Made by a program: the position numbers and the translations under genes
The notes under the pieces: generated by a model
Databases searched by the model: none
Told to the model about the DNA's origin: nothing
The model's input: only the letters and a program-made list of their open reading frames with translations
Shown: in pieces, positions 15,480 to 52,591 of the stretch
Numbering within the stretch: the first letter of the stretch is position 1
Layout of the letters: every line of letters begins with the position of its first letter
From: Prorocentrum cordatum
Lineage: Eukaryota
Assembly: GCA_963575745.1 (NCBI GenBank)
Contig: CAUYUJ010000015.1
Span: 248,001 to 312,000, forward strand
Reading direction: 5' to 3'
DNA: 64,000 nucleotides

Positions 15480-15581
15480 GTCCCGATGATGATGATGATG
15501 ATGACGATGTTGATGATGATGATGGCCATGGTGGTGATGATGATGGTATCCCGATGATGAAGATTATGTTGATGATGCTGT

Positions 15582-15619
<38 letters not shown>

Positions 15620-16390: not shown

Positions 16391-16423
<33 letters not shown>

Positions 16424-21410: not shown

Positions 21411-21513
21411 ATCCAAAAGCCTCATAGCGAGATCGTTTAAAACAGTGCCAGGGCATTGTTTTAAAGAACGGCCGTTCTTTAAAACAGTCCCCCGGGACTG
21501 TTTTGAAGAACGC
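21411..21513 (+). repeat. Left terminal inverted repeat with two ~40-bp palindromes
   Basis: CGTT(CT)TTAAAACAGT-N8-AYTGTTTTRAAGAACG at 21434-21470 and 21473-21512; matches reverse complement of 38371-38453. Confidence 0.9.
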
Positions 21514-22188: not shown

Positions 22189-22220
<32 letters not shown>

Positions 22221-22755
22221 GAGGAGGAGGAGGAGGAGGAGGAGGAGGAAGACGGGGGGGAGGGGGAACGAGACGGAGGGGGAGGGAGATGAGGATGTTG
22301 AAAGAGGTGGGAGGATGTGGAGGAGGAGGAGGAGGAGGAGGAGGAGGAGGAGGAGGAGAGGAGGAGGACGACGAGGGAGGGGGGGAAGGGAAAGGAGGAC
22401 GAAGGGAGGAAGAAGAGGAAGGAGGAGGAGGGAGGAATATGAGGAGGAGGACGAGGACAATGACGAGAAGGAAGAGAGGAGGAGGAGGAGGAGGAGGAGG
22501 AGGAGGAGGAGGAGGAGGAGGAGGAGAGGAGGAGGAGGAGGAGGAGGAGGGAGGAGGAGGAGGAGGAGGAGGAGGAGGAGGAGGAGGAGGAGGAGGAGGA
22601 GGAGGAGGAGAGGAGGAGGAGGAGGAGGAGGAGGAGAGGAGAGGAGGAGGAGGAGGAGGAGAGGAGGAGGAGGGGAGAGGAGGAGGAGGGAGGAGGAGGA
22701 GGAGAGGAGGAGGAGGAGGAGGAGGAGAGGGGGGACGACGACGACGACGACGACA
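22188..22755. repeat. (GGA)n purine microsatellite inside the transposon
   Basis: Directly visible. Confidence 0.95.
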
Positions 22756-22839: not shown

Positions 22840-24022
22840 ATGGACGAGGCCCGCGTCCGCGAGCGCCTCCGTCAGCGAATGTCTGGGTATGCAGCAGACC
22901 CAGGCGATGGGCATGGGGATGGAGATCACGGGTGGCAGGTGATCGGCGGTGGGGATCACGGGTGGCAGATCACGGGCGGCAGGTCACGCGTGGCAGGTGA
23001 TTGGCGGGTCGCAGGCGGCGGCCGCAATGGCGGCGGTTGGAGCCGCAGTGGCGGCCGCTGGAATGATGGTGGAGATAACGAGTGGGGAGGTGATCGGTGG
23101 AGCGGATGGGAAGAGCATTCGTCGAGCTGGTGGGGTGGATCTTGGCAGAGCGGCCGCAGTAGCGGATGGCGGGGCGACCCGTGGCGCGCAGAAAACCAGC
23201 AGCCAACGGCAGCGGCGGGCACGGGAGCCGCTCATGAGTCCGCGCCTGCAGAGATCGCGCAACTGACGACGGCGACCCGCGAGGGTGGCAAAGAAGAAGG
23301 CGCAGTTGCGCTTGGCCGATGGGAAGGCGCAGTCGCGCCAGCCACAGAGCCCGCGGCAGAGGAGGAAGCGGCGCCGATCGTATACACGCTCGATTATTTC
23401 CAAAACTACGATAAAGGTTGGAATGGCAATTATAGGCAACACAACGCGGCGTTGAAGTTCTTTCGGGGTGACCTGGAAGAGTTCGCCGCCACCCGCATTT
23501 TCAACACCGCAGTTGCGGAGATGATCCCGTGCATCATCAAAGCCAAGAAGCGCGGGACACATCAGGACAACACGGATTGGCAGTTCAGCGGCGACAGTTT
23601 CACTCCTTGGTCCTGGCTGGAGATGGTTGCGCAGCTGGGCGCGTCTACGATGGAACGAGTGGTGCGCGGCCGCGGTCGCAGTCCTGATGGGGGCCGCAGT
23701 CGCGGTTTGGTCAGTTGCAGTTTGCCCATGCCCGAATTCGCACGACCACAACAGGCAGGCGAAACGCGTGCGTGACAAACACGAGGAGGGCGTCAAGCTG
23801 CAGAGGTGGGATTTCCTCCTGCGCCGTGACGATGGTTCTGGCATTCGTATTCACCCCGAGTGGTCGGAAACGAATTTCCGCATGCACGAGGAGGAGCCGC
23901 ATTCGAGTGCCGCGCCTGCGCCGCGGAAAGGGCTTGGCCAGAGCGACGGGGCTGGGACGTTCCGCTGGCACAAGCAATTGGGCACCCAAGAAATCCCAGG
24001 ACGTTTCGACGGCGAGAAATGA
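22840..24022 (+). pseudogene. Cargo gene A, unknown function; Trp/Gly-rich N-terminus; frameshift near 23722
   Basis: ATG 22840; globular-looking segments YRQHNAALKFFR, PWSWLEMVAQL, WDFLLRRDDGSGIRIHPEWS. Confidence 0.65.
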
Positions 24023-24527
24023 GCGCATTCGCCGCCGCGGCGGGGTTAATAAGTTGCGAGCGCTGCGCGCATGAAGCCGCAGTCGCGGCGGTTGCTTAGC
24101 GATTGAGTCGCGCGGGGCTGAATTGACTCTGATTTGGCGCGGTTAAGCGAGATGGTGAAGCCGCAGTTGCGGCGCTCAGAGTCGCATCTGCTTCATGCGG
24201 GGGCTTGCTTTGCCAGTGGAGCTGGAAAAGGAAAAACCCGTCTTCGCCCGCCTCGTCGTCGTTCTCCTCGCCGTCGTTCTCCTCGTCGTTCTCCTCCCCT
24301 GTCCAATCAGTCCCTCGTGTCCAAGCAGTCTCTCACAACATGTCCCTCGTGTCCGGTCAGTCCCTCGTCCAATCAGTCCCTCGTTCTCCCCGAGCTCCCC
24401 CCGAACCTTCTCGCTCGCCTCGCTGCCCTCCTCGCCCGCCGCAGCCGCTGCCCACCTCGAGCCCTGGCCCGGGGCGGTCGCCCCCCGCGCGCGCGCGAGG
24501 CCCGCGCATCCCTCATGGCAGGGTAAA

Positions 24528-26753
24528 ATGGTTTCACACGTTTACGCGCTCTCCAAGAGCAGGCGCAGCCGCCGAGGCGCAAGCCGAAGCGGAAGCGACG
24601 GGGCTCGGAGATCCCGCAATTCGAAGGCGCTGCATGGGGCCGCAGTTGCGGAGGCGGCGCCTGTGCCTGAGGCCGCCCAGGGCGATGCAGCTTCAGAGGC
24701 CGCAGTTGCGGCCGAGGCACCGCGTTCGCACGAGCAGAAGCTGACGGCCTTGAGGGCGGGCCTCGTTCGCAGGCAACAGCAGCGGGATGCGGCGGCACCC
24801 GCGGGAGCTGCAGAGGGCAGCGATACGGAGTTGGACGACTCAGACGGAGAGCCCGCAGTCGCGGGGCAGCGCGCTTCCTCATCGAAGGGCGCAGTGCTCA
24901 GGCCGCGCAGCGCGGTAGTTGTGCGTCAGACGGAAAAGTGCGACAAGGAGTTGGAGAAGAAGGAAGTCGACAAGGAGGATGGTGAGTGTTCATCTCCAGA
25001 TTCAGATTCATCTTCTGATGTAGGAAATACATCAGAAGAGGAGGAAGCCGGACGTCGCAAAGGCAGGTTGCGTGGAATGAAGCCTCTCAGAACCCCGCCA
25101 GGGAACGCGCAGTTGCGCGCGAGGGGCAGCGTTTGCGACAGCGTGCCCCCGCGGCAGAGCCCGTAGTCGCGGGAGGGGCGCCCCGAGGCAGTTCTTGCCC
25201 CTCGCGCAAAAGGTCTTGCGCGCGCGCCCGCGTCTGAGGCCGCAGTCGCGGTGGAGGGGCCTTGGCCCCCCCAGGGTAAGGCGGGGCCTTGCGGGGGCGA
25301 AGTTCGCGCGGAGGCGTCGGGGGCGAAGTTCGCGCGAATTGCGGCATCGCCCCGCAGGAAGCCGAGCGACATGGCGCGCGCGAAGGCTGCGGCCTCCCCC
25401 GCCAAGGCTTCTCCGCCTCTGGGTCCGCCGGCCCCTTTCTTGAGCCGCAGTCGCGGGAGGGGGGGTCGGGGCCGCAGTCCTCGCACCGAGGGGGCGGCGC
25501 CGAAGGGCGCTCCAGCGGAGCGGCCGTTTCGACACCAGCGCCCGCCGTCGCCGCCGCGGTTCCGGGAGCCGACGCACCCCGCGCCCGAGAAGGACTGGAA
25601 CGAGCGGAACCGAGTTCTGAACGAGACGGTGACGAGGGTCCCAAGCACCATCACGCCCGCGGTCAACGCGGCGATCGTCGCGACGCAGTGCGCCAAGAAC
25701 GCCGTGAGCAAATGGATGTGCAAGCAGACAGCTGGGCTTCTGGTCGCGTTGTTCGACCCCGACTTCATGGCCGCCCTCCACGGCTGGCGCGGCACAGAAG
25801 CCGCAGTCGCGGCAGAAGTGGTGTACACCGCCCTTCTGAAGAAGATCGACGCCAGGCCCGATGGTGAGGAGATCGCACATTGGGCTCGTGCCCCCCTGAT
25901 CGGTCCGAAAGGGCACGACTGCGGATTCGTTGTCTGGCGTGAGCAGATCATCTCAGAGGTCGCAGTTGCGACGCAGGAGAACTCGGAGACGCACGTCTAC
26001 TGGGTCCTGAGCGCCGACTTGGTGGAGTCTGCGCGGAATCCAAGCGCGACGATCCCGTTCGCTGTCTTCACGAGGTGGCATGCCACGCGCCCCACTCGGG
26101 CGGCTCCACGGGGGCCGCACGAGTGGGGCGCGCCCGTGCGGAGGGGGCGCGCAGTCGCGGACGTGCACCACAAGGACGTGCGCTTCCTCGTCGGCTTCTG
26201 GGATGCACCGCAGGAAGTCCTCGCGCGCTTTTACCGCAGTTGCGGAGCGTTCGGGACTCACCCGCTCGCGGTAATCTACGAGGGCTCCTCGAGGCTCGAC
26301 CCGAACCTCGCCCCTGGCAGCCACATCTCGCATCCCATCTACTTCTTGCCCATTGGGCATGGCAACCTGCGGATCGCTGCCTACCAGGACGGGCGGCCGC
26401 CGGCGCTGCCAGAGCGGTTGCGCTCGATTGGGCCCTCCGAGATCGCGCGGCACTGGGTTGAATCGCATCGCATCCCAACGTGGGATTGGGACGAGGACCG
26501 CAGTAGCGGCATTCGGTCCACAGAGGGCCTGCGGCCCGAGATCACATTGGGCAGGGTCGCGCAGAAGGAGCTCAACACAGCGACGTTCTCGAGACACCGC
26601 GTGGATGGCACCCACCAGAACGTCGCGCGCATCGGGCACGGCCGCTCGGGAGGCCACGAGCATCGCGGCAGTGGGAACCGCAGTCGCGGTGAGACGCGGA
26701 TGCCGCGGAGACGCGGATGCCGCTGTCGCGGTGTTAAGGAGCAGGGCGACTGA
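24528..26753 (+). pseudogene. Cargo gene B, unknown function; one in-frame TAG at 25164
   Basis: ORFs 24195-25166 and 25251-26753 share a frame; the stop is a C>T change inside a hairpin motif (ccgTagtcgcgg); low-complexity N-term, globular C-term. Confidence 0.6.
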
Positions 26754-27199
26754 GACGCGGAGGCCGCAGCCGCGGTGCAGCGCAAAAAAAGACGCAGGAG
26801 GGGGGGGGGCAGGGGGGGCAGGGGGAGGAGGAGGAGGAGAGCAGGAGGAGGAGGAGCAGGAGGAGGAGCAGGAGGAGCAGGAGGATCAGGGGCAGGATCT
26901 GGAGCAGGAGCAGGAGCAGGAGCCGGGAACGCAGGAGCAGGAGAAGCAGGACAAGTAGGGCCAGGCTGCGCCGCTCGCGTCCGCCCCCTCCTCTTCCTTC
27001 CCCCCTCCTCCCCCTTCCCCCTCTCATGCTCTCGCCCCCCCTCCCCATCGCCCCCCCCCCCTTTCCCCCGCGGCCGTTTGCGACCGCAGGACTTTTACTT
27101 TGTGTACGCTTGTAACATTTCGCGCGGCGCAACGCGCTGCGTCCATATTTTCTGACAGGCTGCAGGCGCGGCCTGCCCAGGCGACGACGCGACAGGAGC

Positions 27200-28215
27200 C
27201 GCAGCTGCGGATGCCGCGCCGGATTTAGGGATCTTCCAGGGGGCTGAGATCAGACGGCGCTTCAGGGTCGAGGGCCAAGACAAGGTCCGCACCCCTGTGC
27301 GCATGATCGCGCCCCATCCCAGCAATCCCCGCGGGCAGCGCTCTCAGGGCGAGAGGGTTCGGGAACTTGCTGCGCAGAACATCGCGGCGGGCTTCGCGCA
27401 GGCAGAGGCTGACCACGAAGGCGCGCGCGCTCAGGAGCGAAAACGCCTGTGGAGATGGCGCAGAGTGACGAAGGCTTCAAATCGATAGGGGAGCTCAGCA
27501 AAAGTCAAGCGAAAAGGTACATCAAGGAGTGTATCAATCGCAGTTGCGAATCCGACATGCTGTATGGATCCCTTTCGCACTCTCACCTGCGCCTCGTCTT
27601 GCGCGCAATCGCGAACGGGGCCAAGTGGCCCGCCCCGCCTGGGATGGCAATTTACAGACGTGGAGCGCGCAAGGCTTGATCGCGTAGTGGATAAAGATGG
27701 CAACGTCGACACGGCCGCAGTCGCGGACCACGACCCTATTGCCAAGAAGCTCGCCACGGAGGGGATGCTCATGGAGGTGCTTTCCTGGGAGCTCTTGGAA
27801 AAAGAACCCAGCGGAGCTTCGTTGGTCAGCCAATCTTTGAACAAGGGGGCTGACTTCCAGATGCGGGCCACTGAAGTAACAGCGCTCCGCGTTCTTTGCG
27901 ACGCTGTCGACGTTGCCCTGGCGTCCGCAGTCGCGGGGCAGGTGAACTTTCAGCAGATCAAAACAGTCGCGTCTCGGCAGCTCGATCGCGTCTTCCAGGA
28001 CCCAGACTTCGTGGAGCTCTTTGATTTCATTGTGGGCCTCGGGAGCACGAAGTCTCCCTTCATCCTGCTGCTGCTGGAATTCTGCCAAGCATTTGTGAAC
28101 TCGAAGAGGGTCGCTTTGCGACTCGGTGCATTCGGCTTAGCGAAGGGGATTACAGACACTGCGCCGTGGGTCAAGATTGCCGTTGTCATGCGAGCTTACA
28201 GAAATGCCCCTCCAG

Positions 28216-28308
<93 letters not shown>

Positions 28309-29600
28309 ACCGCGGTGCGGCGCGCAGATCCCGAAGCGCCCTGGGCAACAAAAAAGAGAGCACGTCGCGTACCTCGAAGACAACTCGGCCTTCACGATTT
28401 TCTTTCACCACGTGGCCAAGAACGTGGCGGACATGGGCGCCAACGTAGGGCTCGAATTCAAAGCGAATCTGGCCGCGCTGACAGCGGAGGCCGTCGCGAA
28501 GGACGCAAAGGCCACGCAGGTGTCGTCACTGACTGCAGGGGGCGTTCGAAAGGAGATTCTCCGCTGTTGCGTGGATGCCATAGACAACGTGCCGCGCGAG
28601 AATCATCGGAAGGCATTGGTGGCCGCAGTTGCGGCTCTCGAGGGCGCTCGCAAACCTGATTGGTTCAAACTGTCAGAAGCGTCGGCGCCTGCTACGCAGA
28701 AAGCCGCAGTTGCGGCCCAGAGTGCGAACGCAGCGCCAATGGAGGCGCTGCAGCCGAAGGCGTCGACTTTCGACGCTGCGACGCTGCCACCAATTACCAG
28801 CCAGAGCAGCAGGCCGGCAGAAGCAGCCCCCGACACCGTTCCAGTTGCCGACGGCCGAGCGGCAGCAGTCTTCCGCCCATCAAGAGGCGGGGAAAACGTA
28901 CGCGCTGGCTCCTGCGGCGGCCCTCGCTCTTTGGGCGCGCCACTTGACCGCAGTCGCGGAAGTGGGCGTCAAATTGACGCGGGATCCCTGCGCGAACAAG
29001 CTCAGCGCAATAGCGACCGAGGAACGCGAGGCGGAAGCCGTCGAGTTCTGGCCTTGCGCCCCGCAGACTTCCAAAGTGCATGAGAAGAGCTTGCGCCCAG
29101 ACAGGGCGCGCGTGCAGGCGTGCGTGAAGGGGGCCGCAGCTGCGGACGAGGTCTTGGACTCCCACATCAACCCTGAGTTCAAGGCGCCGACAGACACAGC
29201 GCCAGTGGACTTGGGGGCGCAGGGGGTGAAGACATGGAGTTGGGATGCCACTGAAAGCATGCACTGGTCTTGGGCCGTCGGGAAGTCGATGCCGGCTGAG
29301 TTGTCGACGCGGAACGATACGCCTGGAAGCGCAGTTGCGCGGTCCAACATGGGGCTGCAGGAGAAAGAGCTTGCTGTTGTGGTGCCTGGCGCGGCTCCAC
29401 TCGTGGCGAGCATCAAAGTCCCCGTCTTGGTCAACAGCACGCCCGTGAAGAAGGGCGGCGAACTTCTGCGGGAGAGAAAGGCGAGGCCGAAAGCCAAAGC
29501 CAAAGCGAGTTCAGAGACGCGGCGCACGGCAGAGGCGAAGCAGGCGAATGAGAAGGCGTCGGGGCGCCCCCTGCGGAGAAACAAAAGAAAGGTTTTGATG
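27200..29600 (+). pseudogene. Cargo gene C: ParB/Srx-like N-terminus, SET-like C-terminus; several frameshifts and a 92-nt A run
   Basis: IAPHPSNPRG...VRELAAQNIAAGF...YGSLSHSHLRLVLRAI; C-term AIATEE..FWP, SNM, VPVLVNSTPVKKGGEL. Fold calls are by eye. Confidence 0.55.
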
Positions 29601-29958
29601 TCCAGGGGAAGATGTCGCCATGATTGGCCTTGCGCGGCCGCAGCGGCGGCGCTGCGAGCCGCAGTCGCGGCCCTTGCCAGGAGAGCTTCGCGAAGTTGCC
29701 GCGGCGCTGAGGAAAACGAGCGGCAGAAGGGGGGGCGCGAGAGAAACTACTTGTAGGATCATGAGAGAAACAAGAGAGCCGCAGAGGGCCATGTGCGAGA
29801 GGGGGGGGGGGGGGGGGACTCGGGGAAAGGTAGGGGAAGGTGGGGGGGGATGAGGCAAATGGAGCGGGGGAAGAGGCGGGGGAGGAGGCGAAGGAGGAGG
29901 CGGAGGGGGAGGCGGAGGGGGGGGGCTGGGAGCTAGCTCAGGAAGCCTCTCTGGTGGG

Positions 29959-30101
29959 CGTTCTTTAAAACAGTGCCTTGGCATTGTTTCAAAGAACGCT
30001 GAGGACGCTTCGTTCTTTAAAACAGTGCCTTGGCACTGTTTTAAACAACGCTGGGGGCGCTTCGTTATTTAAACAGTGCCTTGGCATTGTTTTAAAGAAC
30101 G
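29959..30101. promoter_or_regulatory. Three internal copies of the TIR palindrome, 52-bp period; putative transposase-binding array
   Basis: Copies start at 29959, 30011, 30063: CGTTCTTTAAAACAGTGCCTTGGCAYTGTTTYAAASAACG-like. Function is inferred. Confidence 0.75.
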
Positions 30102-30268
30102 CCGGCCCCAGAGAATTTCGCTCTCGGCGGGCGGCTTGGGGGCGTCGGGGGAGGGGGAATCGCTCGCGCCGGCGCCGTTGCGGCCCCGATCCGGCCGAGC
30201 TGCTGCTTTTCTGTCGCGAGCCCGCCTGCCTCTGTTCAGGCTCTAGGGCCGCAGTTGCGGCGTCCGCG

Positions 30269-31296
30269 ATGGCTGTCTGGGAGGTGCCCGAAGTGCGCGC
30301 CGCGCTCTGCGTGACTGGCGGCTGGAGCGGGAAGACGTTGGCCATCCCAGACAACGATGTGAAGCACATCTCCCTGCCTGTTGCGGAGAGCACCGAAGAA
30401 GTCGAATTCGTACATGTGACAATGCAGAAGAGGTGGCTCCTGTCGGTGTGCTCTGAACACGCAAGGCCCATCCCAGGACAACTGAAGAGTTCCCCAGCGT
30501 GGAGTCACGCCAAGAAGGCGTGGAGGAAAGCAGGTGGCGCCGCAGTTACGGACGACGGCAACGACAGCGACTCTGACGACGACGACCCCATTGGAGCGCT
30601 CGTGAAATCTGGGCCCGAGAAAGGCTCGAAAATGAAGCGCGACCAGTCGCCTGGGACCCCAGGCGCTCGGGAGATGAAAAAGCAGTCCGCGGGCCATGGA
30701 CGCGGCAAAGGTCACGCAGTCGACAAAACTACAGCCACCGTGCTTTCAGTCGAGGTTCCCGCGAAGAGCGCCTTGAAGTACCCGACAGATACGACGACGC
30801 GAAGCGTGCGCCTGGCCAGTTTCAAGCGCAGGATGTTGTGTCTTGCTGCTACGGACCTCGGCTGGCTGCTCCAACAGATCTCGGGCGACTTGAGCGCCAG
30901 AGGCCGTCCGAACCTCATCGACGCAAACCGCGACGGGAGTGCCGTCGCGCCGTCAGAGCGCGACGCCGCAGTTGCGGAGATGGTCGACCTGACAGACAGC
31001 CCGCCTCCTGGCCCTGAGCACATGGCCCAGGGAAGTGGCGTTGGCTTCGCAATTGCCCGGGATTTCCGAGGCGCTTGGGCTGCAACCATCGCGCGGGACG
31101 GCCCGACCAAAGGAAACACCATCGAGATGGAAGTGAAGAAGCTGACAAAGAAAAGTGGGAGGAGGTCAGAGCCGCGAAGAACTACACGTACGAGTGGAGT
31201 AAAATCACACGGGTGCAGAAGAGGTAGGCGGCGATGGAGCACTTGGAATTACAGGTGCCTGGATTGATCCAGACCCACGCGGATAGCCCAACGTAA
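30269..31296 (+). pseudogene. Cargo gene D, unknown function; frameshift near 31150
   Basis: ATG 30269 MAVWEVPEV...EFVHVTMQKRWLL...DLGWLLQQI; acidic/basic linker. Confidence 0.55.
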
Positions 31297-31618
31297 GAAC
31301 GCAATTCCGCCGCAAGAGAGGGACGTGCCAGACCGCAAAGACGTGCGCGAGGTGCCGCAGTCGCGGCCGCGCCAGGGGCCGCCGTTGCGATGTCTCGTCG
31401 TTCATTGCGCCTGATTGAGGAGATCGCCGACTGAGAGGGGAACTCAGCCACATATTGGGGAGATCAGCGCGCAAAAAAATAGTTTAGTTGCTGCCTTCGC
31501 GAGCTGTGCCTTGCATTTCTTACTTTGCAACCTCGTGCTTCCTGCTTCCTCCATCGCCCTTCGCCCGTCTCCTTCCCAACGTCCGTTCCCGCAGCCGCTT
31601 CCGAGGCTTAAAGGTTCG

Positions 31619-34600
31619 ATGACTCGCAGGGGTGAGTCATGGACGCGCCCCTCGGTAAGCGATGGCATGGCCAGGAAGGCGCTGTGCATTATGAACTGGA
31701 ATGGCTACGGGATGCCAGCGGCGCGAAGCCGAGAAAAACCAGGCATGGCATAACAGGCATTTGCGATATGGCACCGTAGTGACGGGGGACACTGTGGCAA
31801 GGGAGTGAAGGTACACGCGTGCACCCACCTTCCTTGTCAGGCAAAGTGGCCCGCGTCGCAATATGGCACCTCGACAGAGCCGCCATTGTTTCACCTGCAA
31901 CCGTCCGACTGGCGCCCTGACGCCTTGCCCGGCGCCGTCGCGGCGGAGGCCGCGGCGCCAGCCGAAGCGGCGGCACCGCCACCAGCTGCTGACGCAACAG
32001 CAGATGGCGCAGTTGCGCCAGAGGCCGCCGTCGCAGTGTCGCAGAGCGCAGACGCGCCAGAAGCCGCAGTTGCGGCTGCTCCAGCGCCGCCATGCGCGGC
32101 GCCTGCTGGCCTAGAGGACGCAGCCGCACTCGGCACCACCAGAGGAACCACCTGTGGAACCTGCGGACGATGAGAAGGCAGCCGCAGTTGCGGACCCTGA
32201 CGCGCCGCCACTGGCTGAGGCAGGGGGCGTCCCTCTAGGAGAAGAAGTAGGAGAGAGCGCCGCTGCTCCAACTCTGGGGCGCCTGCCTCCAGCGCCCCCT
32301 TTGCCAGCAAAGTGGCGCGATTCTGACGTGCAGTTCTTTCCTTGCTCCGACGCGAAGGCCGCGGCTGCTGTTGCGGCGCCGAGCGCTGCGCCTTTGCGCG
32401 CGCGAGTCCCTGCGGCCCCCCTGGCGCCAACAAAGGGGGAATCTGTGACGGGGGCTCTGAAGCTGCAGGCCGCAGTCGCGGCGAGGGTTCCAGACAAAGT
32501 GATCGCGGTGTTGCGAAGCATTCTGAGAGAGGGCTCCTATGTTGGGTACTCCGCATTTCCCCTGTTCGCCATGCGTTTCAAGCGTCGCCCTTTCGTGTGG
32601 GAAGGTGAGAACCGGAAGGATCTGCTGAACTTCTACATGCCATGGGCAGAGGAGCGTTGCCTTGATCTTTGCGCGGTGGACGGCGTGGCGTGCGTACTCT
32701 GCAAGGATGATGCCGATGATGCTTTGTTCAGTGATGAGTTCACGGCGCAGGATCTGAAGCAAGTGAACGACGAACACCCAGTTCATGAGGTTCGCCACTG
32801 GGTGGCCGCAGTTGCGGCGGGCATGGTGGTGCAAGGTGGAGTAGACCCGCTGAACCAATTCTATGGCCCTCTGGAACAATTCGTCCTGGGAACCGTTTGC
32901 GATGGGAATTGCGGCATCGATGTGATGGCGTTGATGCTCGAGAAGGCCAAAGATGCGCAGTCGCGCGCGTGGATCCGCCAGGAACTCTACGACTTCGGAA
33001 TGGCGCGCTGGAGCGAGCCGTGGTTACTTGACATGTTCCAGGCCACGCAGGAGTTGGAGATGGAAGAACTGAGGGCATATCGCAGTTGCGGCCACGACGA
33101 TCCACCCGTGCAGATCTGTTTGCTAGACGGCGGTGGCGCCCCAGGCGCGGCGCCGGAACCCGCGGAAGAATCCCCCGCAGCAAGTCCCATGCTTCTGGAG
33201 GCCCTCAAGTGGTCCACGGGGGTGACAGACGAAGGAACTTTGATGGCGATCGCGAGCGCCATGCCAGAACCTTTGCAGGGCGAGCAGATCAGAGCGCACG
33301 AGGCGTTTCAGGCGCAGCCAATAGACGTTGTTGCAACTACAAAGAAGAAGGTGCGCCCCTGGCTGCTCGGAGATCGCAGCGTGGTCTGCTTAGATCTCGA
33401 ACAGCGCGCTCACAGTCGCGGTTGGCTGGGCGATGGTCCGCTTCCGCGCGGTGAGCTCAAGAGCTTTTGCGAAAAGTTTTCGTGGCCGACGGCCATGGCG
33501 GAAACAAAACAAAGAAGAAGCGTAGCACGGTGGTGGTGGCGCTGGAGACTGCAGTCTGGACAAGCAGACGCGGGGCAGACTACGAACAGACGGCGCGCAC
33601 ACGGCGCTGGCGCCATGTCGAAATGCCCGCGGCTGGAAGTCATTCTTTACTAGTGGTGGTCACACATGAGGTCATCTGTGGACTGGAAGGCCGTGGCCAA
33701 ACGGAGCCCAGTCGCGGAGCAACGCCCGAAGATGCTCGCTAGGTACACGCAGGCCCTGATCGTCACGAAAGCGCGGCAACCCTTGACGCAGTGCTGCGTG
33801 GAAGCCTTGAAGCAGGGACTCAAACCGAGGGTGCCGCAGTTGCGGCCTCGGCGGTGGTCGAAGTGGCGTCGCTCGTACGGCTTAAGCCTACGAAAACTTG
33901 ACCGTAAGTACAAAGTGCCGAAATGGCTCCTGCTGTCGCGCTTCCAAACGATGATCCTCAACGTGGCGAGGGTTCGGGCCGCCGCGGAGGAACTTCTTGG
34001 CTACGACCCACGCATCCTCAACTGGGACCAATCCCCCTTCCACCACAACGAGACGGCTTCTGCTTCGAAGCCGTGCTTGGCCAAAGGAGGGCTCGCCCCG
34101 CTGGTGGAAGCCCACGACGACAGCAAAGCCAGGTGGACAGCCAACCTCGCGGTGTCGAGCGACACGGCGGAAGTCCGCAGTCGCGGACCGCCGCCGGCGG
34201 AGATGATGTTCAAAGGGAGGCCTGCCGTGGCGAAGGACCTTGCGGCACACGTGCGAAATTGCGAATATGGTGCTTGGGTGAGCACGGCGACCTCTGAGAA
34301 GGGCTCATACCGCACAGAAGATGTCATTGCCTTCCTGAAGCGGCACTTGCGCGCGCGGCCAGAGGACCCGCAGTCGCGGGGGCCGTGGTGCATCCTCATG
34401 GCCGACGACCACGGGCCACACAAAGCAGATGCGGTCAGGAGGCTCGCATGGACACATGGCGACGTCCTCATCATCCATGGAGGGGGCACGACCGCGGCTG
34501 CGCAACCCGTGGACACGGACTTGAATCAGCACGTTAAGCGCCTTTACATGGCACTCAAAACCGCGGAGCTCGTGAAGCAAATGGCGGAGGGCAAACAGGT

Positions 34601-35807
34601 TTCGCAGTTGCGGCGGCACGAGTGCGTCGACTTGATGGTGTCAGTGCTGAGCAATGTACAACTCCACGTAGATGCCGCCGCAGGTTTTCTCAAAACAGGG
34701 ATCAGGGCTCCATTTGAGAAGTCTGGCGATGTGCATATCTGCAGGGAAGCAGCGTCGCCGTGGAGAGACGGGGGCTTGCGGGAGAAAGTAGATGCCGCAG
34801 TCGCGGATGTCAAGGCATAATGCAGAGCGGGCAGGCTCAGGTGGTCATACAACGACATAGGCCGCCTCATCCTACCCTACGAGAAGCACAATGCAGCAGG
34901 CAAGGTCCTGTCTAACTTGGGCGAGGAAGTGCTGAGCAAGAGCGCAGAGGAGAAGGAAGAGGAAGAGGAGGAGGAAGGCGACGGCATGGAGGAGAGCGCC
35001 GACAGCGCTTCCGACGAGGCTGATGAGAAGCGAGGCTGGCAGGAGGCTCGTCAGGAAGACGCAGAGGCCGCAGTTGCGGATTGCGCGCTTGCGCCTGCGG
35101 TGGTCGGGGCGGACAGTGCAGTCGACGCGCGCGCGGCCGATCAGGTAGCAACGGCGGCAGCGCTCGGTGAGACGCTCCAAGAAGCGGAAGCGTTGCTGCG
35201 GAAGGTGGGCATGGAAAAGCTTGCAATGAATTGTCGAAACCAGCAGCGGAAACAAGAGAAGCGCTTGCGAGAGTTGTCTCGCGAGGACGACGGCCTCCTG
35301 CGAGCCTTAACGGCGCAGGGGGATCGCGAGGCCACCGTGGAGGCGACGCGGCGGCGAGTGGCGAGGGAAGCGAACGACATGGCCCTGGCGCTCCGAGACT
35401 TGAGGAGGCAAATTCGGGAGTCCAGGGCCGCCTTGGGAGCGAGCAAAGAAGCCGCAGTCGCGGCGGAGGCGGCGCTGGCGAGCAAATTCGCCCTGGCACA
35501 GTGGAAACCAGAGGACTTCAAGCTCAAGAAAAACATGATGGCGGCTCTGGATCGCCTGGCCCGCGGCAAGGGCGTCCTCTCGGAGGCGCAGAGACAAGAG
35601 TGGGCGTGGTTCAAAACGAACTGGGGCGAGGAGATGAATAAGCAACACAAAGAGGAGTGGCCAACCACCTTCGCAGGATGGATGCAGAAGGTCGCGAACG
35701 ACGCCGCAGATGGGAATCGCGCGGCGCCGTCGCAGTTCGTGTACTCTGAGACAGTGAGAACTCTAGGCGGCCAGATGGCGTTGGTGGTGCCCGCTACCGC
35801 CGCGTAA
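31619..35807 (+). pseudogene. Large transposase gene: OTU-like domain, CENP-B-type HTH, pogo DD35D catalytic domain, coiled-coil tail; stops at 33651 (TAG) and 34818 (TAA); 5' part frameshifted
   Basis: ORFs 32154-33653, 33666-34820 and 34917-35807 are in one frame. ILNWDQSP (D 34026), ILMADDHGPH (D 34404), TTAAAQPVDTDLN (D 34512; 35 residues between D2 and D3); PRLEVILY*WW and WRRSYGLSLRK are HTH-like. Confidence 0.85.
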
Positions 35808-36314
35808 TTCATTGGAGCCTTGTGGCCGCAGTTGCGGCGAGGTGCTGCCGCAGTTGGGGCCCTCTCGCCGCTGCGTTGAAAAAAATCCAGCACCAACGCT
35901 AACTAATTATTGCCGTTGCGTGTCCTCCAGATCCTCGCCCTCCTCCCCCCCTTCCCCCTCGCCCTTATCCTCCTCCTCCTCCTCCTCCTCCCCCTCCTCA
36001 CCGCCATCATCGGCCCTTTCGATCGCCTGCTGCTGCTGCTGGTGCTGCTGCTGTTTCCCTCCGCCCCGCCGCAGCGCCGCTCGATCCTCCTGCAGCTGTT
36101 GCTCCGCCACCCCCTCCTCCTAATCGTTCCAGCGGCGCGAGAGCAATTCCCGGCTCAAGGGCCATCGCTCAAACTCGCCACGGCTGGCGCGGGCGCGCGC
36201 GCGTCCGCTCGGCCGCCACGTCTTCCCGGGGCACTTCTTGGCCTTGGCGGGTCGCGACGCCGACCGCTGAGGGCACTTCTCCTGGCTCAGGAATCCAGTT
36301 TGGCAGCGCGGAGG

Positions 36315-37142
36315 ATGTCAGCGAGGCCGCAGTCGCGGAGGGCGGCGGCGCTGGATCCGGCACCGACGGTTTCACTCAAGACGGGGGCAGTTGCGCTCCG
36401 TCTTCGGCGGCCTCCGCCGCAGGCGACGAAGAAGAAAACCAGGGGGCCGCAGTTGCGGCGGGGGGCAGTCCTGGCGCAGGGGCCGCAGCTGCGGCGGCGC
36501 GTCAAAAGACGGTGCGAGTTTGGGAAAACAGTTCGCCTGCGGAGGGCCCGCCAGCCGACCGACGAAGAGCAGACTGCTCTTCTCGAGTGGGAGAACAAGC
36601 GCAGAGAGAACATGGGGGGATCGGTTTCTACGCTTGCATCTTCGGGGGCACGGCGGCGAAACCGAAGCAGCGCCAAGACGAGCATGCGCAGATACATGCG
36701 AATCCCGCGCATGTCGTCGCCATCTGAGAATGCGACAACGAGCTGTCCGAAGTGTTGTCTGGGCGCAGAGACCCCGCGGAGAGCGCAGCCGCAGTAGCGG
36801 GCGACGCGTTCGCAAATCGAGATCGCTACAACTACTTGTGCGCAAAAGGCGCCGAAGAGAAGGGCTCGCTTCTCATTGGCATTCGAGACCGCGGCGGCGG
36901 TGATATTGAGTGCCGCAACTTCACCAGGAACTTCCAACAAAAAAGAAGTGGCGAAAGCAGGGGCCATCGTCAACCGATACTCCAGGGCCGTGGTCGCACG
37001 CGCAACCCTGGACGGGTCCGTCGCGCACCTGGGTTCCCACGTTGCCGCCACGGCGGCGCGCGCGCACTACAAGTTTGGGCAGCGGCGACTTCGGGGGGGG
37101 AGAAGAAGGAGAATAATAGAAAACAAATCAGAGAAGAAGAAG

Positions 37143-37181
<39 letters not shown>

Positions 37182-38310
37182 TTGCGCGAACACTACGATT
37201 GGTTCGTAGATTACGTCAAGAAGCACAAGGTCCAAGTGTGCATGGGTGATTTCAACATGTGCATGTTCGATTTGGTTCAACAGTGCCGCAGTCGCGGCCT
37301 GACCATCGACGCGGGCGCGTGGACCCCTCGGAAGACCGCAGGCGGCGCGCCCAGTGCCGACAGCATCGCCAAAGGCTTGGACGTCTTACACGAGGGCAAC
37401 GGCGGCCTCCTCGCGCACCACAATACCGACGAGTTCTTCGAGTTCGATTACACGAATGGGCTTGGAAAACAGTTGGAAACAGACTTGCCCAAGAGCGTCA
37501 ACCAGATGGATAAGTTGCGTCCTTGTCTGACGCCAGCAGACGCGCCCGTCGCCGCAGTCGTGGACTTCGAGACGAAGATGGCCGAGATCAAGAGGAATCC
37601 GCAGTCGCGGAGGCATCGAGCACAAGAGTGGGTTCCGCGCCCGTTCAGGACGCGGCAGAAGGAGGTGAACGTCGCCATCTGGAAAGGCTCAATGGGAAAG
37701 GCGCGCAACGGAGCCCACTTCCCTTTACTGGTGTATGCGCACAACCAGCCACGCAGGTCGCCTGAGAAGCAAGCCGAGAGGCCCCTTAAGCAGAAGCCAA
37801 GGAAAGGGGATAACTGGGGGAGCCGAAAAGGAGGCAAAGAGGCAGGGCGAAAACGACGAGCGCAAAGGCGGCGAAGGCCAGAGCAAGGGCGGCCACGGCA
37901 GAGGCCACTGGGGCGGCAAGGGCAAACGCGAATGGGCAGTGGCTCATGACCAACCACCTGGCCTTGAAGCCGCAGTAGCGGTTCAGGAGGAGGCTCGGGG
38001 CCACTGGCAGAGAAACAGGTGGGACGGCTGGAACTCGTGGCGTTCGCAGGGGAGCTCTTGGAATGATTGGGGCTCCTGGGATGGATGGGGCTCCAGTTGG
38101 TGGAGAGATCAGGGCGCCGTAGTCGCGGCTGAGACGCCGCCTGCAGCCGAGGCCCCGATGCCGCAGTCGCGGTTTGCTGGCGGCCACGAGCAATCGGCCG
38201 TTGGCAGCATGTGGGCTAATGCGAACAGTTGGGATGCTCCAGCGCCCCAGCTGCCCATGCCGCTGGGCTCGGTTTGGAGCTACTGGGTGCCTCCAGGGTC
38301 GCTTCCATGA
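36315..38310 (+). pseudogene. Cargo gene E: endonuclease/exonuclease/phosphatase (EEP)-like protein, frameshifted, Trp-rich C-terminus
   Basis: PAHVVAI*E (cf. PDIIxLQE), VCMGDFN, GAHFPLLV (cf. SDHxPL) in canonical order. Confidence 0.65.
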
Positions 38311-38370: not shown

Positions 38371-38453
38371 GCGTTCTTTAAAACAGTGCCGGGCGACTGT
38401 TTTACAGAACGGTGCCGTTCTTTAAAACGATCTCGTTATTCGGACTTTTGGAT
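38371..38453 (-). repeat. Right terminal inverted repeat
   Basis: Reverse complement ATCCAAAAGTCCGAATAACGAGATCGTTTTAAAGAACGG...; one full palindrome (38372-38411) plus a half site. Confidence 0.9.
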
Positions 38454-38455: not shown

Positions 38456-41400
38456 GGCCTGGAGCGCGTCGCAGAATTCGCGGAGTGGGTCTGGCACCGC
38501 TGCCTCCCAGGCGCTCCTCGCCGCTGGGCCAACACCTCCGTGCAGCGCCACCTTGGCCGCCTTCTTGCACGGCAGCGGGTGGAGCCTTTTCGCGAGTCTC
38601 CTCCTGCTATGCGCCTTGGTCACTGTCGCCTGGCCTCCTCGGCACTCGTCGAACAGGGGCCCCTTCCTAGTCCTCCTCGCTCTGAGGCCTACCTCCTCCT
38701 TCAGCTTCCCATTGCCGTGCTGGACAAGGTGGTGGCCGCGGTGCCGCAGCGCCTCCCAGAGCCTTGGGCTCAGGGCCTCCTACTCCTCAGCACCCTCCTC
38801 CTGGCCTGCGCCGGCGAACTCGTCCTCCACCTCCGCCTGGGCCTCCAGCTCCACGAAGCCCTTGGGGAGGCCGTCCGCGCCCTCCTCCTGCGCTTGCAAC
38901 GGCACCGTGGACGTCGCTACCGACCGCGCCGCCAGCACCCTCTCGGCCTTGGTGGCTCAGGCCGCGGCCCCCTTCTTGACGAAGGCGTCGGCGCACCTGA
39001 TGCCCTTCCGCCCCCTGAGGTCCTCCTCATTCTTGCGCTCAGCTTTAGCCTGGTGGCCCTTGACCTTCACCACCTCCATCCCCTTCATGTCGCCGAACTC
39101 GGTCCACGACCTGCTCTTTAGCCTCTTGCGGTCGCTCCCAAAGCCGAGCTCCCGCTGCGTGTTGGTGGCGCAGTCGATCGAGCCCTGGCAATCCGAGTGC
39201 ACCGTCGCTGGGGCCGCGCAGCGCCCTGATAAGATGTGGAACGCGTAGTCCTCACCATCTTGCGTCAGCTTCATCGAGGTCCACCGCAATGGCACCGTGC
39301 CGTGCAGCGCGCCGCCCAGCTTTCCCGCGGGGCTCAGCATCACCACCGCCCAGCCCGCACGCCTCAGTGCGAAATCCTCCGCGTTCACCGCCGAGCCGTC
39401 CACGAAGCCGTCCCCCGCGAAACTATCAAGCGGAGGCCTCAGGTGCACAATGCCTCCACCTCTCGCCCGGGCCTCTCGTCTCCGGAAGCCAGACCTGGGT
39501 GATCTATGGGAAGAGGCCCCGAACGAACCTCTCGCCAACTTCTTCTCCTCCGTCTCTCCCTGCGCGAGGCGCTGCCTCCGGAGCCTCAAGGCGGGCAGGA
39601 GTCGCGCCGTGCGGCCCCAATGGCGTCGCACGCTCAGTGCCTGTGCCACGGCGTGCCTCGCGTCGGCTTGCGCCTCCTGCGCTTGGCCGGCACTCCTTGG
39701 CCATGTCGTGGAGCCTCGCCTGCGGCCACTGTGGCCCTCGTACGCAGCACCGCAGCGCCCTCTTGCACGCCAGGCCCCGCGTTTCCTCTTCCTTCGCCGC
39801 CTGCAGCTCCTCAGTGTGCCTCCACTGTGCGGGGCCTCCCCACGCCGAGCCCTTCCCCAGGCTGGGCAGCGCTCGCGCGTCCGCCGTCCACTGCGCCAGC
39901 TGCGTCCAGCTCCTCGCCCGTTGGGGCCCTCAGCTGGAAGGCCGACCCCATCTCGGTGCCCGCCCTCGCCATCATGAGCACCATGACGTCCGCCGGGCTC
40001 TTTGCCCTCCGCCATTGGCTTTTTTACCTTACAGCGAAAACTGATAGGTTTCTAGTGGGCTCAAAAGAGAGCATCATGACTCCCCAGGGGGGCCTGGGCA
40101 GATGCCAGACGGGTGCCCGGGAAAACCGGGGACTTCTTTTTTAACCAACAGTAACGCATTTCGTGTTCTTCAAGTTCCCAGAACTCCATTCCTGGACATG
40201 GTTTTGAATGCCCAGAGCCAACTGTAGGCCACTTCGTCTTCTTCGAGTTCCCAGAACTCCATTCCTGGGCATGATTTTGAATGCCCGGAGCCAACTGTAG
40301 GCCACTTCGTGTTCAGAACCTCATTCCTGGGAATGATTTTGAATGCCCAGAGCCAACTGTAGGCCACTTCGTGTTCTTCGAGTTCCCAGAACTCCATTCC
40401 CGGGCCACATTTTGAATGCTGAGGCAGGCTGAGGCTGAGGCTGAGGCAGGCTGAGGCTGAGGCAGGCTGAGGCTGAGGCCGAGGCTGAAGGCAGACTGAG
40501 GCTGAGGCTGAAGCAGGCTAAGGCTGAGGCTGAGGCTGAGGCAGGCTGATGCTGAGGCTGAGGCTGAGGCTGAGGCTGATGCAGGCTGAGGCTGAGGCTG
40601 AGGCTGAGGCCGAGGCTGAAGGCAGACTGAGGCTGAGGCTGAAGCAGGCTGAGGCTGAGGCTGAGGCAGGCTGAGGCTGAGGCAGGCTGGCTGAGGCAGG
40701 CTGAGGCTGAGGCTGAGGCTGAAGCAGGCTGAGGCTGAGGCTGAGGCTGAGGCTGAGGCAGGCTGATGCTGAGGCAGGCTGAGGCTGAGGCTGAGGCTGA
40801 GCAGGCTGAGGCTGAGGCAGGCTGAGGCTGAGGCCGAGGCTGAGGCAGACTGAGGCTGAGGCTGAAGCAGGCTGAGGCTGAGGCTGAGGCAGGCTGAGGC
40901 TGAGGCTGAGGCAGGCTGATGCTGAGGCAGGCTGAGGCTGAGGCTGAGGCTGATGCAGGCTGAGGCTGAGGCAGGCTGAGGCTGAGGCCGAGGCTGAAGG
41001 CAGACTGAGGCTGAGGCTGAAGCAGGCTGAGGCTGAGGCTGAGGCAGGCTGAGGCTGAGGCTGAGGCAGGCTGATGCTGAGACAGGCTGAGGCTGAGGCT
41101 GAGGCTGATGCAGGCTGAGGCTGAGGCAGGCTGAGGCTGAGGCCGAGGCTGAAGGCAGACTGAGGCCGAGGCTGAAGCAGGCTGAGGCTGAGGCTGAGGC
41201 AGGCTGAGGCTGAGGCAGAGGCAGGCTGATGCTGAGGCAGGCTGAGGCTGAGGCTGAGGCTGATGCAGGCTGAGGCTGAGGCAGGCTGAAGCTGAGGCCG
41301 AGGCTGAAGGCAGACTGAGGCTGAGGCTGAAGCAGGCTGAGGCTGAGGCTGAGGCTGAGGCTGAGGCTGAGGCTGAGGCCTGAGGCTGAGGCAGGCTGAG

Positions 41401-43250
41401 GCTGAGGCTGAGGCGGATGCAGGCTGAGGCTGAGGCAGGCTGAGGCTGAGGCCGAGGCTGAAGGCAGACTGAGGCTGAGGCTGAAGCAGGCTGAGGCTGA
41501 GGCTGAGGCAGGCTGAGGCTGAGGCTGAGGCAGGCTGATGCTGAGGCAGGCTGAGGCTGAGGCTGAGGCTGATGCAGGCTGAGGATGAGGCAGGCTGAGG
41601 CTGAGGCCGAAGCCGACGGCAGACTAAGGCTGAGGCAGAAGCAGGCTGAGGCAGAGGCAGGCTGAGGCTGAGGCAGAGGCAGGCTGATGCTGAGACAGGC
41701 TGATGCTGAGACTGAGGCTGATGCATGGTTAGGCTGAGGCAGGCTGAGGCTGAGGCCGAGGCTGAAGGCAGACTGATGCTGAGGCTAAAGCAGGCTGAGG
41801 CTGAAGCTGAGGCTGAGGCAGGCTGAGGCTGAGGCAGGCTGAGGCTGAAGGCAGGCTGAGGCGGATGCTGAGGCAGGCTGAGGCTGTGACTGTGATTGTG
41901 ACTGCCGTTGCCACTGCGACTGTCATCGCGAATGCGACTACGACTGCGAGAGCAGCAGAATTCTACAACTGGATTATCATTTGAATCTTAAGGGGAATGC
42001 TTCCAGATATGCTCCTACACATCGCTGTTAGGTTGCTTTGCCGGGATAATTTCAGGCTGCCTCCTCGCATCCCCACAGCAGCTCACCATGACCGCCAGCG
42101 GCGTCTCCTTGAACGGCTCCGCCACATGTCGCCTAGCTCCTCGCCGTCTCCTTTGCCACCAGCGTCTGCGGGTCCATGGGCGCCGCATTGAGCGACACCC
42201 TCAGCCTCAGCGTGACCACCGCCCCTCTGGGCAGCTTACGCTCGGCCCTGCGTGCTTGCAGGCGTAGCCTGCGTAGCTTGTGCAGCCTGCCGTTGGGGAG
42301 GCCCGTCACCCCCACACCCCACAGCGCCGTCGTCGTGGGACTGCCCCACTGCAGGTGCCCAGCTCTGGTGGCTCCTGCCGCTCGCAGCCTCTGCACCCTG
42401 TTCGCCGCCTTCGCTGTCCTTGCGAGGCGCCTGTCCTGCTCCCCGCAGCGCCTCAACCTGCCGTCCGTTGCGGCGCCTCCGAGGTTGTGGGCTCCTTCCG
42501 CCCGCTCTAGCACCAGGCACTCCTCCGCCAAAGCTGCTGCCATCGCCACCGCCGTGGACGCGTCGCTCGCCGTGAGCTCGGTCTTCTGCCTGGAGACGAC
42601 CAGGTCCTTCGCCTCAAGCAGCTCAACCATCCTCACCGTGGCTGCTGCGAGCTGCCGCTTCACCTGCTCCTTCTCGCCCGCCGCCTGCACCATCACCTCG
42701 CCGACCAAGCTCGGGTATCGAACCAACCGGCACTCCCTGGCCAGCAGGCCGAGCGTCCTGTGCAGCAGCACTTCTGCCAGGCCCGTCACGCAGGAGCACG
42801 CCGCCGCCGGCGTGCCGTTCGCCTCCAGCCTCTCGCGGACCGTCTGCCCCCACCTGGCCCTCCGCCGCAGCCTGCAGCGAGTGCACGGCAGCCGCAGGAG
42901 CCCCTGGGGGAGAGCGCACTCTCACGCCGCTCTGCGCCTCAGCGCCTCGTGGGGCGCGTGTTCGTTCTACAAGTAGAGCTGCTCATCAAGACCACAACCA
43001 AGTGCGAGATGATCTTCACGACCATGCGGTCGGCTCTGATCCCCGTGCTAGAACTGGGCCAGGGCCTGGAGTCCCGCCCCATCCGCGAAGCCGACCGTCC
43101 TCGCGTGGCAGGCCACCGCGTTGGAGACCATCCCCACCCTGGCGCACGGCGCGCGCGCCCCTCCCCCAAAGCGGCCCTGGCCTGGCAACTCCGACTCCCG
43201 GCGCTGCATCAGCGGCTGGCGGATGCGGCTCCACAGCCCGCCATGGATTT
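38456..43250 (-). mobile_element. Decayed non-LTR (LINE-like) retrotransposon: RT/thumb remnant (42060-43050) and RNase H (38960-39430), interrupted at 40021-42050
   Basis: RNase H FVDGS..RRAGWAVV..HSDCQ..KVKGH..ADAFVKKGA; RT-region remnants HNLG and LWGVGVTGL; catalytic DD motif decayed. Confidence 0.75.
40021..42050. mobile_element. Non-autonomous Helentron/Helitron2-like element, copy 1, with 73-bp-family tandem repeat and ~1.45-kb (GCTGAG)n array (40418-41885)
   Basis: Starts TTTTTACCTTACAGCGA, ends TCGCTGTTAGGTTGCTTTGCCGGGATAAT; same ends as 61456-62969; removal rejoins LINE frame RRQPE-SQWRRAKSP with no duplication. Confidence 0.65.

Positions 43251-48377: not shown

Positions 48378-52591
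<4,214 letters not shown>

Follow-up and report, generated by a model that had tools for sequence, protein, structure and literature searches.

Why does one stretch of protist DNA repeat a single short hairpin-forming sequence more than fifty times, on one strand only and in every reading frame? The question is raised by a 64-kb window of Prorocentrum cordatum DNA (assembly GCA_963575745.1, contig CAUYUJ010000015.1, positions 248,001 to 312,000; "the window" refers to this whole stretch, and coordinates are counted from its first base), in which a mobile element of about 15-17 kb carries the word CCGC-AGTY-GCGG. With high confidence, this word can be described as a selected cis-acting signal that forms a small hairpin within one nucleic-acid strand. 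It marks the sense strand of every gene, as well as the stretches between open reading frames (ORFs), in a family of large Tc1/mariner-type elements that carry several genes and occur in marine eukaryotes. Single sites are gained and lost, yet point substitutions preserve the density of the word (about one per 300 nt) and its even spacing.

The 10-base core CGCAGTNGCG, which mostly appears as the 12-mer CCGC-AGTY-GCGG, was used to count the word. The plus strand of the window holds 54 copies, of which 53 fall within 23044-38162; the remaining 49 kb contribute a single copy, at 47573. The minus strand of this GC-rich DNA holds none. A sequence-only reading of the window had claimed more than 50 oriented copies, with no reverse-strand copy and essentially none outside the element, and these counts bear it out; all positions that it listed are correct within 2 nt. 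The motif-bearing domain spans 23043..38172 on the plus strand, with the extended consensus G-R-R-G-C-CGCAGTYGCG-G-(C/A). The first C of CGCAGT falls at 23044, 23155, 23301, 23328, 23508, 23695, 24078, 24162, 24641, 24701, 24854, 25108, 25241, 25446, 25802, 25961, 26150 and 26235 (sites 1-18), at 26499, 26679, 27539, 27716, 27926, 28624, 28705, 28949, 29330, 29660, 30250, 30967, 31356, 32008, 32065, 32183, 32471 and 32807 (sites 19-36), and at 32956, 33081, 33835, 34176, 34369, 34603, 34796, 35069, 35453, 35827, 36328, 36448, 36790, 37287, 37600, 37971 and 38162 (sites 37-53). The pattern CCGCAGNNGCGG gives 50 matches in the window, which represent 47 plus-strand sites, all within 23043-38172; three sites are counted on the minus strand as well because the AGCT loop is palindromic. 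Among 100 dinucleotide shuffles of the window, the same pattern occurs 1.0 times on average and at most five times. The count against a Markov background that had been suggested earlier points the same way: models of orders 1-3, trained on the element, predict 0.26, 0.62 and 1.9 core copies inside it, where 53 are observed (expectations of orders 4-5 are inflated by the presence of the motif itself in the training sequence).

The excess is also specific in sequence. Hairpins of the window with a 4-bp stem and a 4-nt loop beginning with AGT (n=55) mostly have the stem CCGC (42), followed by GCGC (6) and TCGC (3), and 4/55 lie outside the element. Copies with one mismatch number 18 on the plus strand and three on the minus strand, the latter all AGCT palindromes, with none outside the element; several of the plus-strand ones resemble CpG decay, such as CCGTAGTCGCGG, which is found twice. 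Words with two mismatches are at background level (24/28 inside the element, 12/15 outside).

The anatomy of the copies is that of a small hairpin. The loop is AGTN in 53/53 core copies, with C (24) and T (24) far ahead of A (4) and G (1) at the fourth position. Stems of 4 bp and of 5 bp are found in 23 copies each, stems of 6 bp in four and of 3 bp in three, and the flanks (G-R-R-G upstream, C/A downstream) are non-complementary. The outer pair is C-G in 42 copies, has changed on both sides in eight (G-C in six, T-A in two) and on one side in three (T-G in two, G-G in one). This covariation (Fisher p = 1.9e-7) favours a hairpin within one strand, and the five covarying stems picked out by eye (23300, 25959, 27538, 32005 and 34173) are indeed present. 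Single stem changes are wobble-compatible on the plus strand in five cases versus three. Predicted folding energies are -5.0 kcal/mol for the 12-mer as RNA and -3.6 or -2.8 kcal/mol as DNA; the corresponding values for the 14-mer are -8.4 and -5.8 kcal/mol. The equal use of C and T in the loop may reflect a tolerated C/T position, deaminase-type C-to-U editing or CpG decay of an ancestral AGTC. Separately, the stop codon at 36795-36797 arises inside a motif copy with an AGTA loop (CAG TAG), so that loop drift in the phase encoding PQxR can kill an ORF.

The word ignores the reading frame, as had been stated for all three frames and for the DNA between genes. The codon phases of the 53 copies are 20/19/14, and some copies lie outside long ORFs, for instance at 24078, 24162, 27539, 30250, 31356 and 35827. 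Three of these (24162, 27539 and 30250) are placed 9-23 nt upstream of the first ATG of an ORF. Copies are more evenly distributed than chance would have it: the mean spacing is 291 nt, with a coefficient of variation of 0.66 against 0.97 +- 0.13 for random placement (P = 0.0008), and the largest gap is 860 nt (P = 0.024). In coding DNA of the window and of the loci of relatives, 26/31 Ala-Val-Ala (AVA) tripeptides are spelled GCA-GTY-GCG, for which a share of 0.046 is expected, and the peptides RS[RC]G (9/9) and PQ[SL]R (6/6) are encoded by the motif throughout. This codon spelling points to selection on nucleotides.

The same word recurs in relatives of the element. The transposase of the element has 82 homologues, all of them environmental or marine sequences. 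Two metagenome contigs whose protein is 46% identical, L001 and L002, each contain CCGCAGTTGCGG three times, on the gene strand only (3/0 and 3/0). A more distant relative, L003, is a 2.9-kb contig of 52% GC filed in a bacterial metagenome-assembled genome (MAG), with 36% protein identity. Its gene strand carries eight exact copies of CCGCAGTCGCGG and one covarying copy with an ACGC..GCGT stem, and its other strand none (9/0). Most of the L003 copies lie in an ORF of 712 aa, one is found 19 nt past the stop codon (2349-2360), and the last 530 nt are free of the word. A copy in the window, at 35826-35837, likewise lies about 19 nt past the transposase stop, matching the placement in L003; judged from the two sequences, the copy about 19 nt after the transposase stop appears to be a positionally conserved 3'-UTR site. 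The rest of the 3.4-Mb MAG contains the L003 12-mer once, compared to 8/9 in L003 itself, and a reversed-word control occurs 10 times in the whole MAG. L003 is probably a eukaryotic contaminant of the bacterial bin. Loops differ by lineage, being AGTC in 9/9 copies of L003 and AGTT in 3/3 copies each of L001 and L002, against 24 of each in the window; the upstream G-R-R-G is absent from the copies of all three contigs.

At the protein level, the translations of the word (PQ[SL]R, RS[RC]G and [SPTA]AVA[GEDVA]) can be scored as peptide marks in homologues, in protein sets that include redundant cluster members. The transposase family shows 312 marks in 48307 residues, with at least one mark in 101/108 proteins. 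For the second conserved protein of the element, which has a predicted endonuclease/exonuclease/phosphatase-like (EEP) fold, 71 marks are found in 7959 residues (at least one in 15/18 proteins), and for a third family seven in 1000 residues (at least one in 3/3 proteins). Two spurious hits have none in 1735 residues (0/2 proteins). Permuted control peptides score approximately 0 in two frames, those of PQ[SL]R and RS[RC]G; in the Ala/Val frame each pattern yields 1-34. Use of the three frames in relatives is uneven, with Ala-Val-Ala at 176 versus 103 and 33. The word is thus kept across relatives of 36-76% identity and in three unrelated protein families. One homologue cluster includes a Tara member whose record looks as if it came from a transcript. 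The marks are retained in P0024, the representative of this cluster, suggesting that mature RNA still contains the word. No protein relative was detected among 2.9 million viral contigs. A scan of these contigs for two words 170-200 nt apart returned four, of which three are accounted for by a 24-nt tandem array or longer duplications, and the fourth has three copies only. On the viral contig L013, two arrays with a 24-nt period (9990-10210 and 14970-15130) hold the 10-base core on one strand, and these are unrelated to the dispersed word.

Although the word is kept, most of its sites are not. On a codon-based alignment, most DNA sites are lineage-specific, while some are shared within sub-clades of the protein alignment, for example PQSR/PQLR preceding the invariant W245, AAVA following the catalytic core and RSCG in the N-terminal region. 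A number of sites fall on conserved residues (R242 of the transposase, RSCGA in the EEP family). Members that lack a word have ordinary residues in the same columns, with no indel, as where MSQLR of P0003 aligns with FENGR; P0003 was compared with P0008 and P0010. The window and L003 each have approximately one site per 300 nt, L001 and L002 fewer, at one per about 1000 nt. Turnover of sites at a kept density and without indels indicates that substitution creates and removes the word, with selection or drive acting on number and coverage, and that the word is not passed on as an insertion.

The carrier is an element in which all the ORFs considered here as long or supported by homology lie on the plus strand. 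Its largest gene (32115..35804, 3.7 kb, 12 copies of the word) encodes a Tc1/mariner-superfamily DDE/D transposase, as judged by fold match, tblastn and a weak Pfam match of the core to DDE_3. The AlphaFold model (pLDDT 73.8) has Mos1, Sleeping Beauty and SETMAR as top Foldseek matches (E 6e-5, prob 1.0) and includes helix-turn-helix DNA-binding parts like those of Mos1, while the alignment profile gives nothing significant against PDB sequences. The acidic residues of the conserved motifs are spaced by about 126 and 36-38 residues. The protein, of roughly 1000-1200 aa, has a cysteine-protease-like CDGNCG motif at the N-terminus, OTU-like by eye, and a long helical tail at the C-terminus. Two stop codons, TAG (33651-33653) and TAA (34818-34820), interrupt its reading frame and mark this copy as decayed. 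Environmental proteins of about 1000 aa align with it colinearly (tblastn span 32751-35798), and the third conserved gene (30269..31264), of unknown function, is colinear over 332 aa with its homologue P0122 (42% identity, 99% of the query, E 1e-60). Both genes are therefore regarded as intronless.

The EEP-fold gene (25167..26750) belongs to an undescribed family whose fold is taken from a model (pLDDT 65.5; top Foldseek matches Tdp2, DNase I, LINE-1 endonuclease and Nocturnin; E 6e-5, prob 1.0). A word-based homologue search found nothing for it and Pfam gave no match, but an exhaustive HMMER search recovered 13 environmental homologues at E <= 0.001. The family has almost no invariant residues, with one nearly invariant column in A2, so that catalytic activity is doubtful. 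The first ORF (22840..23772, no Pfam match) has GW/WG-type tryptophans in its N-terminal part, with 13 W in residues 31-114, and the last ORF (37669..38307) has 12 W in residues 80-145. These dense runs, at 22930-23185 and 37905-38105, are also seen at the C-terminus of the EEP homologue P0118. We take them to resemble Argonaute-hook repeats, and from sequence they hint at a contact with RNA silencing. ORFs of unknown function occupy three frames of 27489..29753 and, downstream of the transposase, 36798..37946. Look-alikes from the atlas were uninformative for the ORF at 27489-28205, and the ORF at 36798-37946 was considered as a second EEP gene and rejected, having a weak local profile match only (E 0.02, probability 2%). 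Both regions contain runs of A on the plus strand, of about 90 (28215-28305) and about 40 (37145-37180), which are read as poly-Lys and shift the surrounding frames; they may stem from retro-copied pieces that kept their poly(A) tails, or may be homopolymers that have expanded. A domain scan of 14 plus-strand ORFs of the element detected no ParB, RNA-binding, NusG/Spt5-like, HUH/Y1 or Rep-helicase domain, nor did the element show a recognisable capsid, reverse transcriptase or RNA polymerase.

The element appears to be bordered by short palindromic units (TTCTTTAAAACAGTGCC..GGCACTGTTTTAAAGAA), of which two form the putative left border (21433..21510) and one the putative right border (38374..38409). 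A palindromic-unit search of the window gives 11 matches, at these two places and in an internal set at 29961..30099 only. The internal set comprises about 2.8 copies of a 52-bp unit shared with the borders and divides the region into two segments of about 8.4 kb, which were considered as paralogues and rejected by tblastx and blastn. The terminal inverted repeats (TIRs) assumed in the sequence-only reading are probably these units: 21455-21513 is inverted relative to 38371-38431, with 88.5% identity over 61 bp, but no long TIRs were found beyond this match of palindromic units. The window as a whole looks eukaryotic, with a GC content of 60-72% and many microsatellites and satellites. A 73-bp tandem repeat family with an internal palindrome (containing CCTGGGCATGATTTTGAATGCCCAG), at 40160-40419 and 61582-62007, resembles the border units in style. 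Simple-repeat arrays, including (GAT)n, (GGA)n, (GCTGAG)n, (TGGC)n/(CGA)n, a 158-bp satellite and (GAG)n, occupy 15485-16785, 22196-22727, 40418-41886, 48675-52059, 53839-55568 and 62029-62791. Outside the element, 57 ORFs were scanned without a recognisable host gene, the one match being of low complexity and below cutoff; together with the large arrays, the lack of a Pfam-recognisable gene in these ORFs indicates that the element sits in repeat-rich, gene-poor DNA. No tRNAs or Rfam families were detected in the window, and a search for a relic of the dinoflagellate spliced leader (a 15-mer, with up to three mismatches) gave a chance-level match only.

How, then, is the word read? It is tentatively proposed, from sequence and its comparison, that it acts in the RNA of the element, licensing intronless transcripts through a multi-copy hairpin. 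RNA is favoured because the polarity of the word is that of the sense strand of every gene, because copies occur in leaders, in any coding frame and just past stops, because the genes are intronless, and because even coverage suits a protein coat along the transcript; the transcript-like Tara member, whose cluster representative keeps the marks, adds to this. Under the proposed mechanism, each transcript of the intronless, co-oriented genes would bear many hairpins, in its 5' leader, in the coding region and past the stop. Through these sites, the transcript would be coated by a protein of host or element origin that binds the hairpin in a sequence-specific manner. Coating would license the transcript by promoting its export or stability, or would shield it from surveillance of long intronless or foreign transcripts, including Argonaute-based silencing, on which the two GW-rich ORFs may act as well. 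A bolder version is rather unlikely in full: a marine protist transposon family would write a self-licensing code, an RNA hairpin word every 300 nt or so in all its intronless genes, whose dedicated reader coats transcripts so that they escape host surveillance, with the Argonaute-hook-like GW-rich proteins and the EEP-fold protein in the same counter-defence kit. Several observations weigh against a role in RNA. All genes are co-oriented, which makes transcript polarity inseparable from the polarity of the element or of its replication. The predicted RNA hairpin is weak, at -5.0 kcal/mol as a 12-mer and -8.4 as a 14-mer, and its pair probability in a 90-nt context is about 0.5, equally for sense and antisense RNA, so that folding cannot tell which strand matters. 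Furthermore, none of the 14 scanned ORFs has a recognised RNA-binding domain, and the modelled EEP fold, common among DNA nucleases, would fit a reader at the DNA level as well as one at the RNA level. Finally, the element specificity of the word rests on a window whose remainder has no recognisable host gene.

The alternatives share much of this evidence. Polarity, covariation, frame independence and even spacing are explained equally well by a signal in single-stranded DNA, which would keep RNA polymerase processive or block silencing over a long foreign unit, in the manner of the bacterial ops element, or would be nicked strand-specifically by the EEP-fold protein in the course of replication, repair or copying. 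A transcription bubble exposes about twelve nucleotides of non-template DNA, the DNA hairpin is by prediction stable enough to fold (-3.6 to -5.8 kcal/mol), and the conserved EEP-fold protein is nearest to the DNA enzymes Tdp2, DNase I and LINE-1 endonuclease. There is also a precedent in ops itself, reported to be a 12-nt hairpin of the non-template strand read by RfaH (PMC5995543). We nevertheless consider this reading unlikely: a signal of the ops type stands once per operon rather than every 300 nt, no NusG/Spt5-like protein was seen among the 14 plus-strand ORFs, catalysis by an EEP family almost without invariant residues is doubtful, and a cut-and-paste element of the DDE type has no known need for strand-specific internal sites. 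The DNA might alternatively be recognised as a duplex, at polar sites for an asymmetric DNA-binding protein that loads there, as at parS, or forms one-way roadblocks that stop antisense read-in while passing sense transcription. The extended consensus is asymmetric, with G-R-R-G upstream only, the word is specific to the element within the window and, for L003, within the MAG, and the transposase has helix-turn-helix parts like Mos1. However, compensation at the outer pair (eight two-sided versus three one-sided changes) is expected for pairing within a strand and not for duplex recognition, the upstream G-R-R-G is lost in L001-L003, and no ParB was found in the 14 plus-strand ORFs, which makes sites of this kind quite improbable. 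The suggestion of parS-like loading sites for a ParB-like cargo, made on first inspection, fails for the same lack of ParB and because 53 dispersed sites in one orientation are unlike the few palindromic duplex sites of parS, which have no required orientation. What remains of that suggestion is the nucleic-acid self-mark, which is oriented, frame-independent and kept at 36-46% identity. The anti-silencing role raised alongside it may still apply.

The word might also bring no benefit to expression and be a by-product of propagation, if a step of copying, repair or conversion prefers or creates it. Such molecular drive has analogues in the uptake-sequence drive of Haemophilus and Neisseria and in short-patch templated conversion between copies. 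It would account for sites that turn over by replacing codons, with density kept and not position, and for the preference of relatives for the least harmful frame, Ala-Val-Ala, as if the word were merely tolerated. On the other hand, a single orientation, even spacing and the placement after the stop in a relative of 36% identity call for a directional reader, and drive would still require a protein that recognises the word; it is judged improbable. Dispersed packaging signals, at which stem-loops would bind a coat- or nucleocapsid-like protein so that full-length plus-strand RNA is packaged into a particle, would suit some 53 co-oriented stem-loops with a fixed loop over 15 kb of genes and spacers, and the two long A runs of the plus strand resemble retained poly(A). 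Yet none of the enzymes or shells of an RNA genome (capsid, reverse transcriptase, RNA polymerase) is recognised, the mobility enzyme is a DNA transposase, relatives carry the word inside single genes on short contigs, and no relative was found among the 2.9 million viral contigs, so we regard packaging as very improbable. That the word has no meaning as nucleic acid, being a product of peptide selection (AAVA, PQSR, RSRG), codon-pair bias or a mobile 12-nt insertion, is close to negligible. Some sites do fall on conserved residues such as R242 of the transposase and RSCGA of the EEP family, but the phases are nearly equal, copies occur outside ORFs, one codon spelling accounts for 26/31 AVA, and the minus strand of this GC-rich DNA has no copy. 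The peptide-level and codon-pair explanations, including the usage in one frame that had been named as a possible refutation, are rejected by the three phases and the AVA spelling. A 12-nt in-frame insertion is rejected as well, with motif-bearing and motif-free homologues aligning without an indel.

Comparison with described systems places the word beside several of them and inside none. Chi, KOPS and the uptake sequences USS/DUS are over-represented bacterial words, spread chromosome-wide at one per 1-5 kb in any frame, maintained through selection or drive and linked to RecBCD, FtsK or DNA uptake; Chi and KOPS are strongly oriented. The word shares only over-representation and polarity with Chi and KOPS (53 versus 0 copies by strand, with 0.3-1.9 expected), but differs from all of these in being confined to one eukaryotic element family, 4-15 times denser and built on a covarying hairpin stem. 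The packaging signals of single-stranded RNA viruses are tens of stem-loops with a common loop motif and variable stems over coding RNA, and they need a coat protein and an RNA genome. They are similar in offering many stem-loops of one strand with a shared loop, although the word has an almost constant stem and the search for a capsid or polymerase gene in the element was negative. Substrates of the yeast RNase III Rnt1p, also invoked in the sequence-only reading, have in common with the word a four-base loop starting with AG (AGNN). Rnt1p, however, measures about 14-16 bp from the loop, and stems of 3-6 bp with non-complementary flanks are far below the length needed, so the analogy does not carry over. 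REP/RAYT, IS200/IS605 and Helitron systems differ in their enzymes, as the transposase of the element is of the DDE type and no HUH/Y1 or Rep-helicase domain appears in the scanned ORFs. Tc1/mariner/pogo elements are matched by the model of the transposase core, which resembles Mos1, Sleeping Beauty and SETMAR. The element departs from them in its length of about 15-17 kb, its extra genes (EEP-fold, GW-rich and of unknown function), its apparent ends, which are short palindromic units, and a larger transposase with a protease-like motif and a helical tail.

Two further precedents concern words that act on expression. The ops element would resemble the word as a strictly oriented 12-nt sequence that marks long horizontally acquired units, and its small non-template-strand hairpin may have a counterpart in the word, which lies on the coding strand and can fold as DNA by prediction (-3.6 to -5.8 kcal/mol); ops (PMC5995543) is bacterial, stands once near the operon start and is read by a NusG paralogue, in contrast to 53 copies in a eukaryotic element in which no such factor was seen. 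The nearest functional precedent would be, by analogy, the CAR-E elements, reported as multi-copy 10-nt elements in coding regions of naturally intronless human mRNAs that promote export (Lei et al., 2013; PMC3575797). The CAR-E elements resemble the word in being short, multi-copy and on the sense strand within the coding region of intronless genes, acting on RNA regardless of frame; they differ in being degenerate, without a hairpin, present in few copies and in host genes, compared to a near-invariant 12-nt hairpin at about one per 300 nt in a mobile element. A search of full-text literature (supplements not covered) for the word in explicit and IUPAC form returned primers or nothing, and a topical search nothing relevant. 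We rate the word as belonging to no described kind, while its function may still prove to be a known one, such as that of an RNA export or stability element, in a new form.

A near-invariant, oriented and frame-independent hairpin word that is held at constant density through turnover, down to 36% protein identity, is strong evidence for an undescribed reader. If this reader acts on RNA, it would show how an intronless mobile element gets long transcripts accepted by a eukaryotic cell, a question that is open for transposons and viruses alike, and the word would then offer a compact and portable expression tag for marine protists, whose engineering is difficult. Should the reader act on DNA, the word would be a eukaryotic counterpart of polar signals of the Chi, KOPS or ops type. 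Either way, members of this element family can be flagged simply by the word in protist genomes and ocean metagenomes, and it has already singled out a misplaced-looking contig, L003, in a bacterial MAG.

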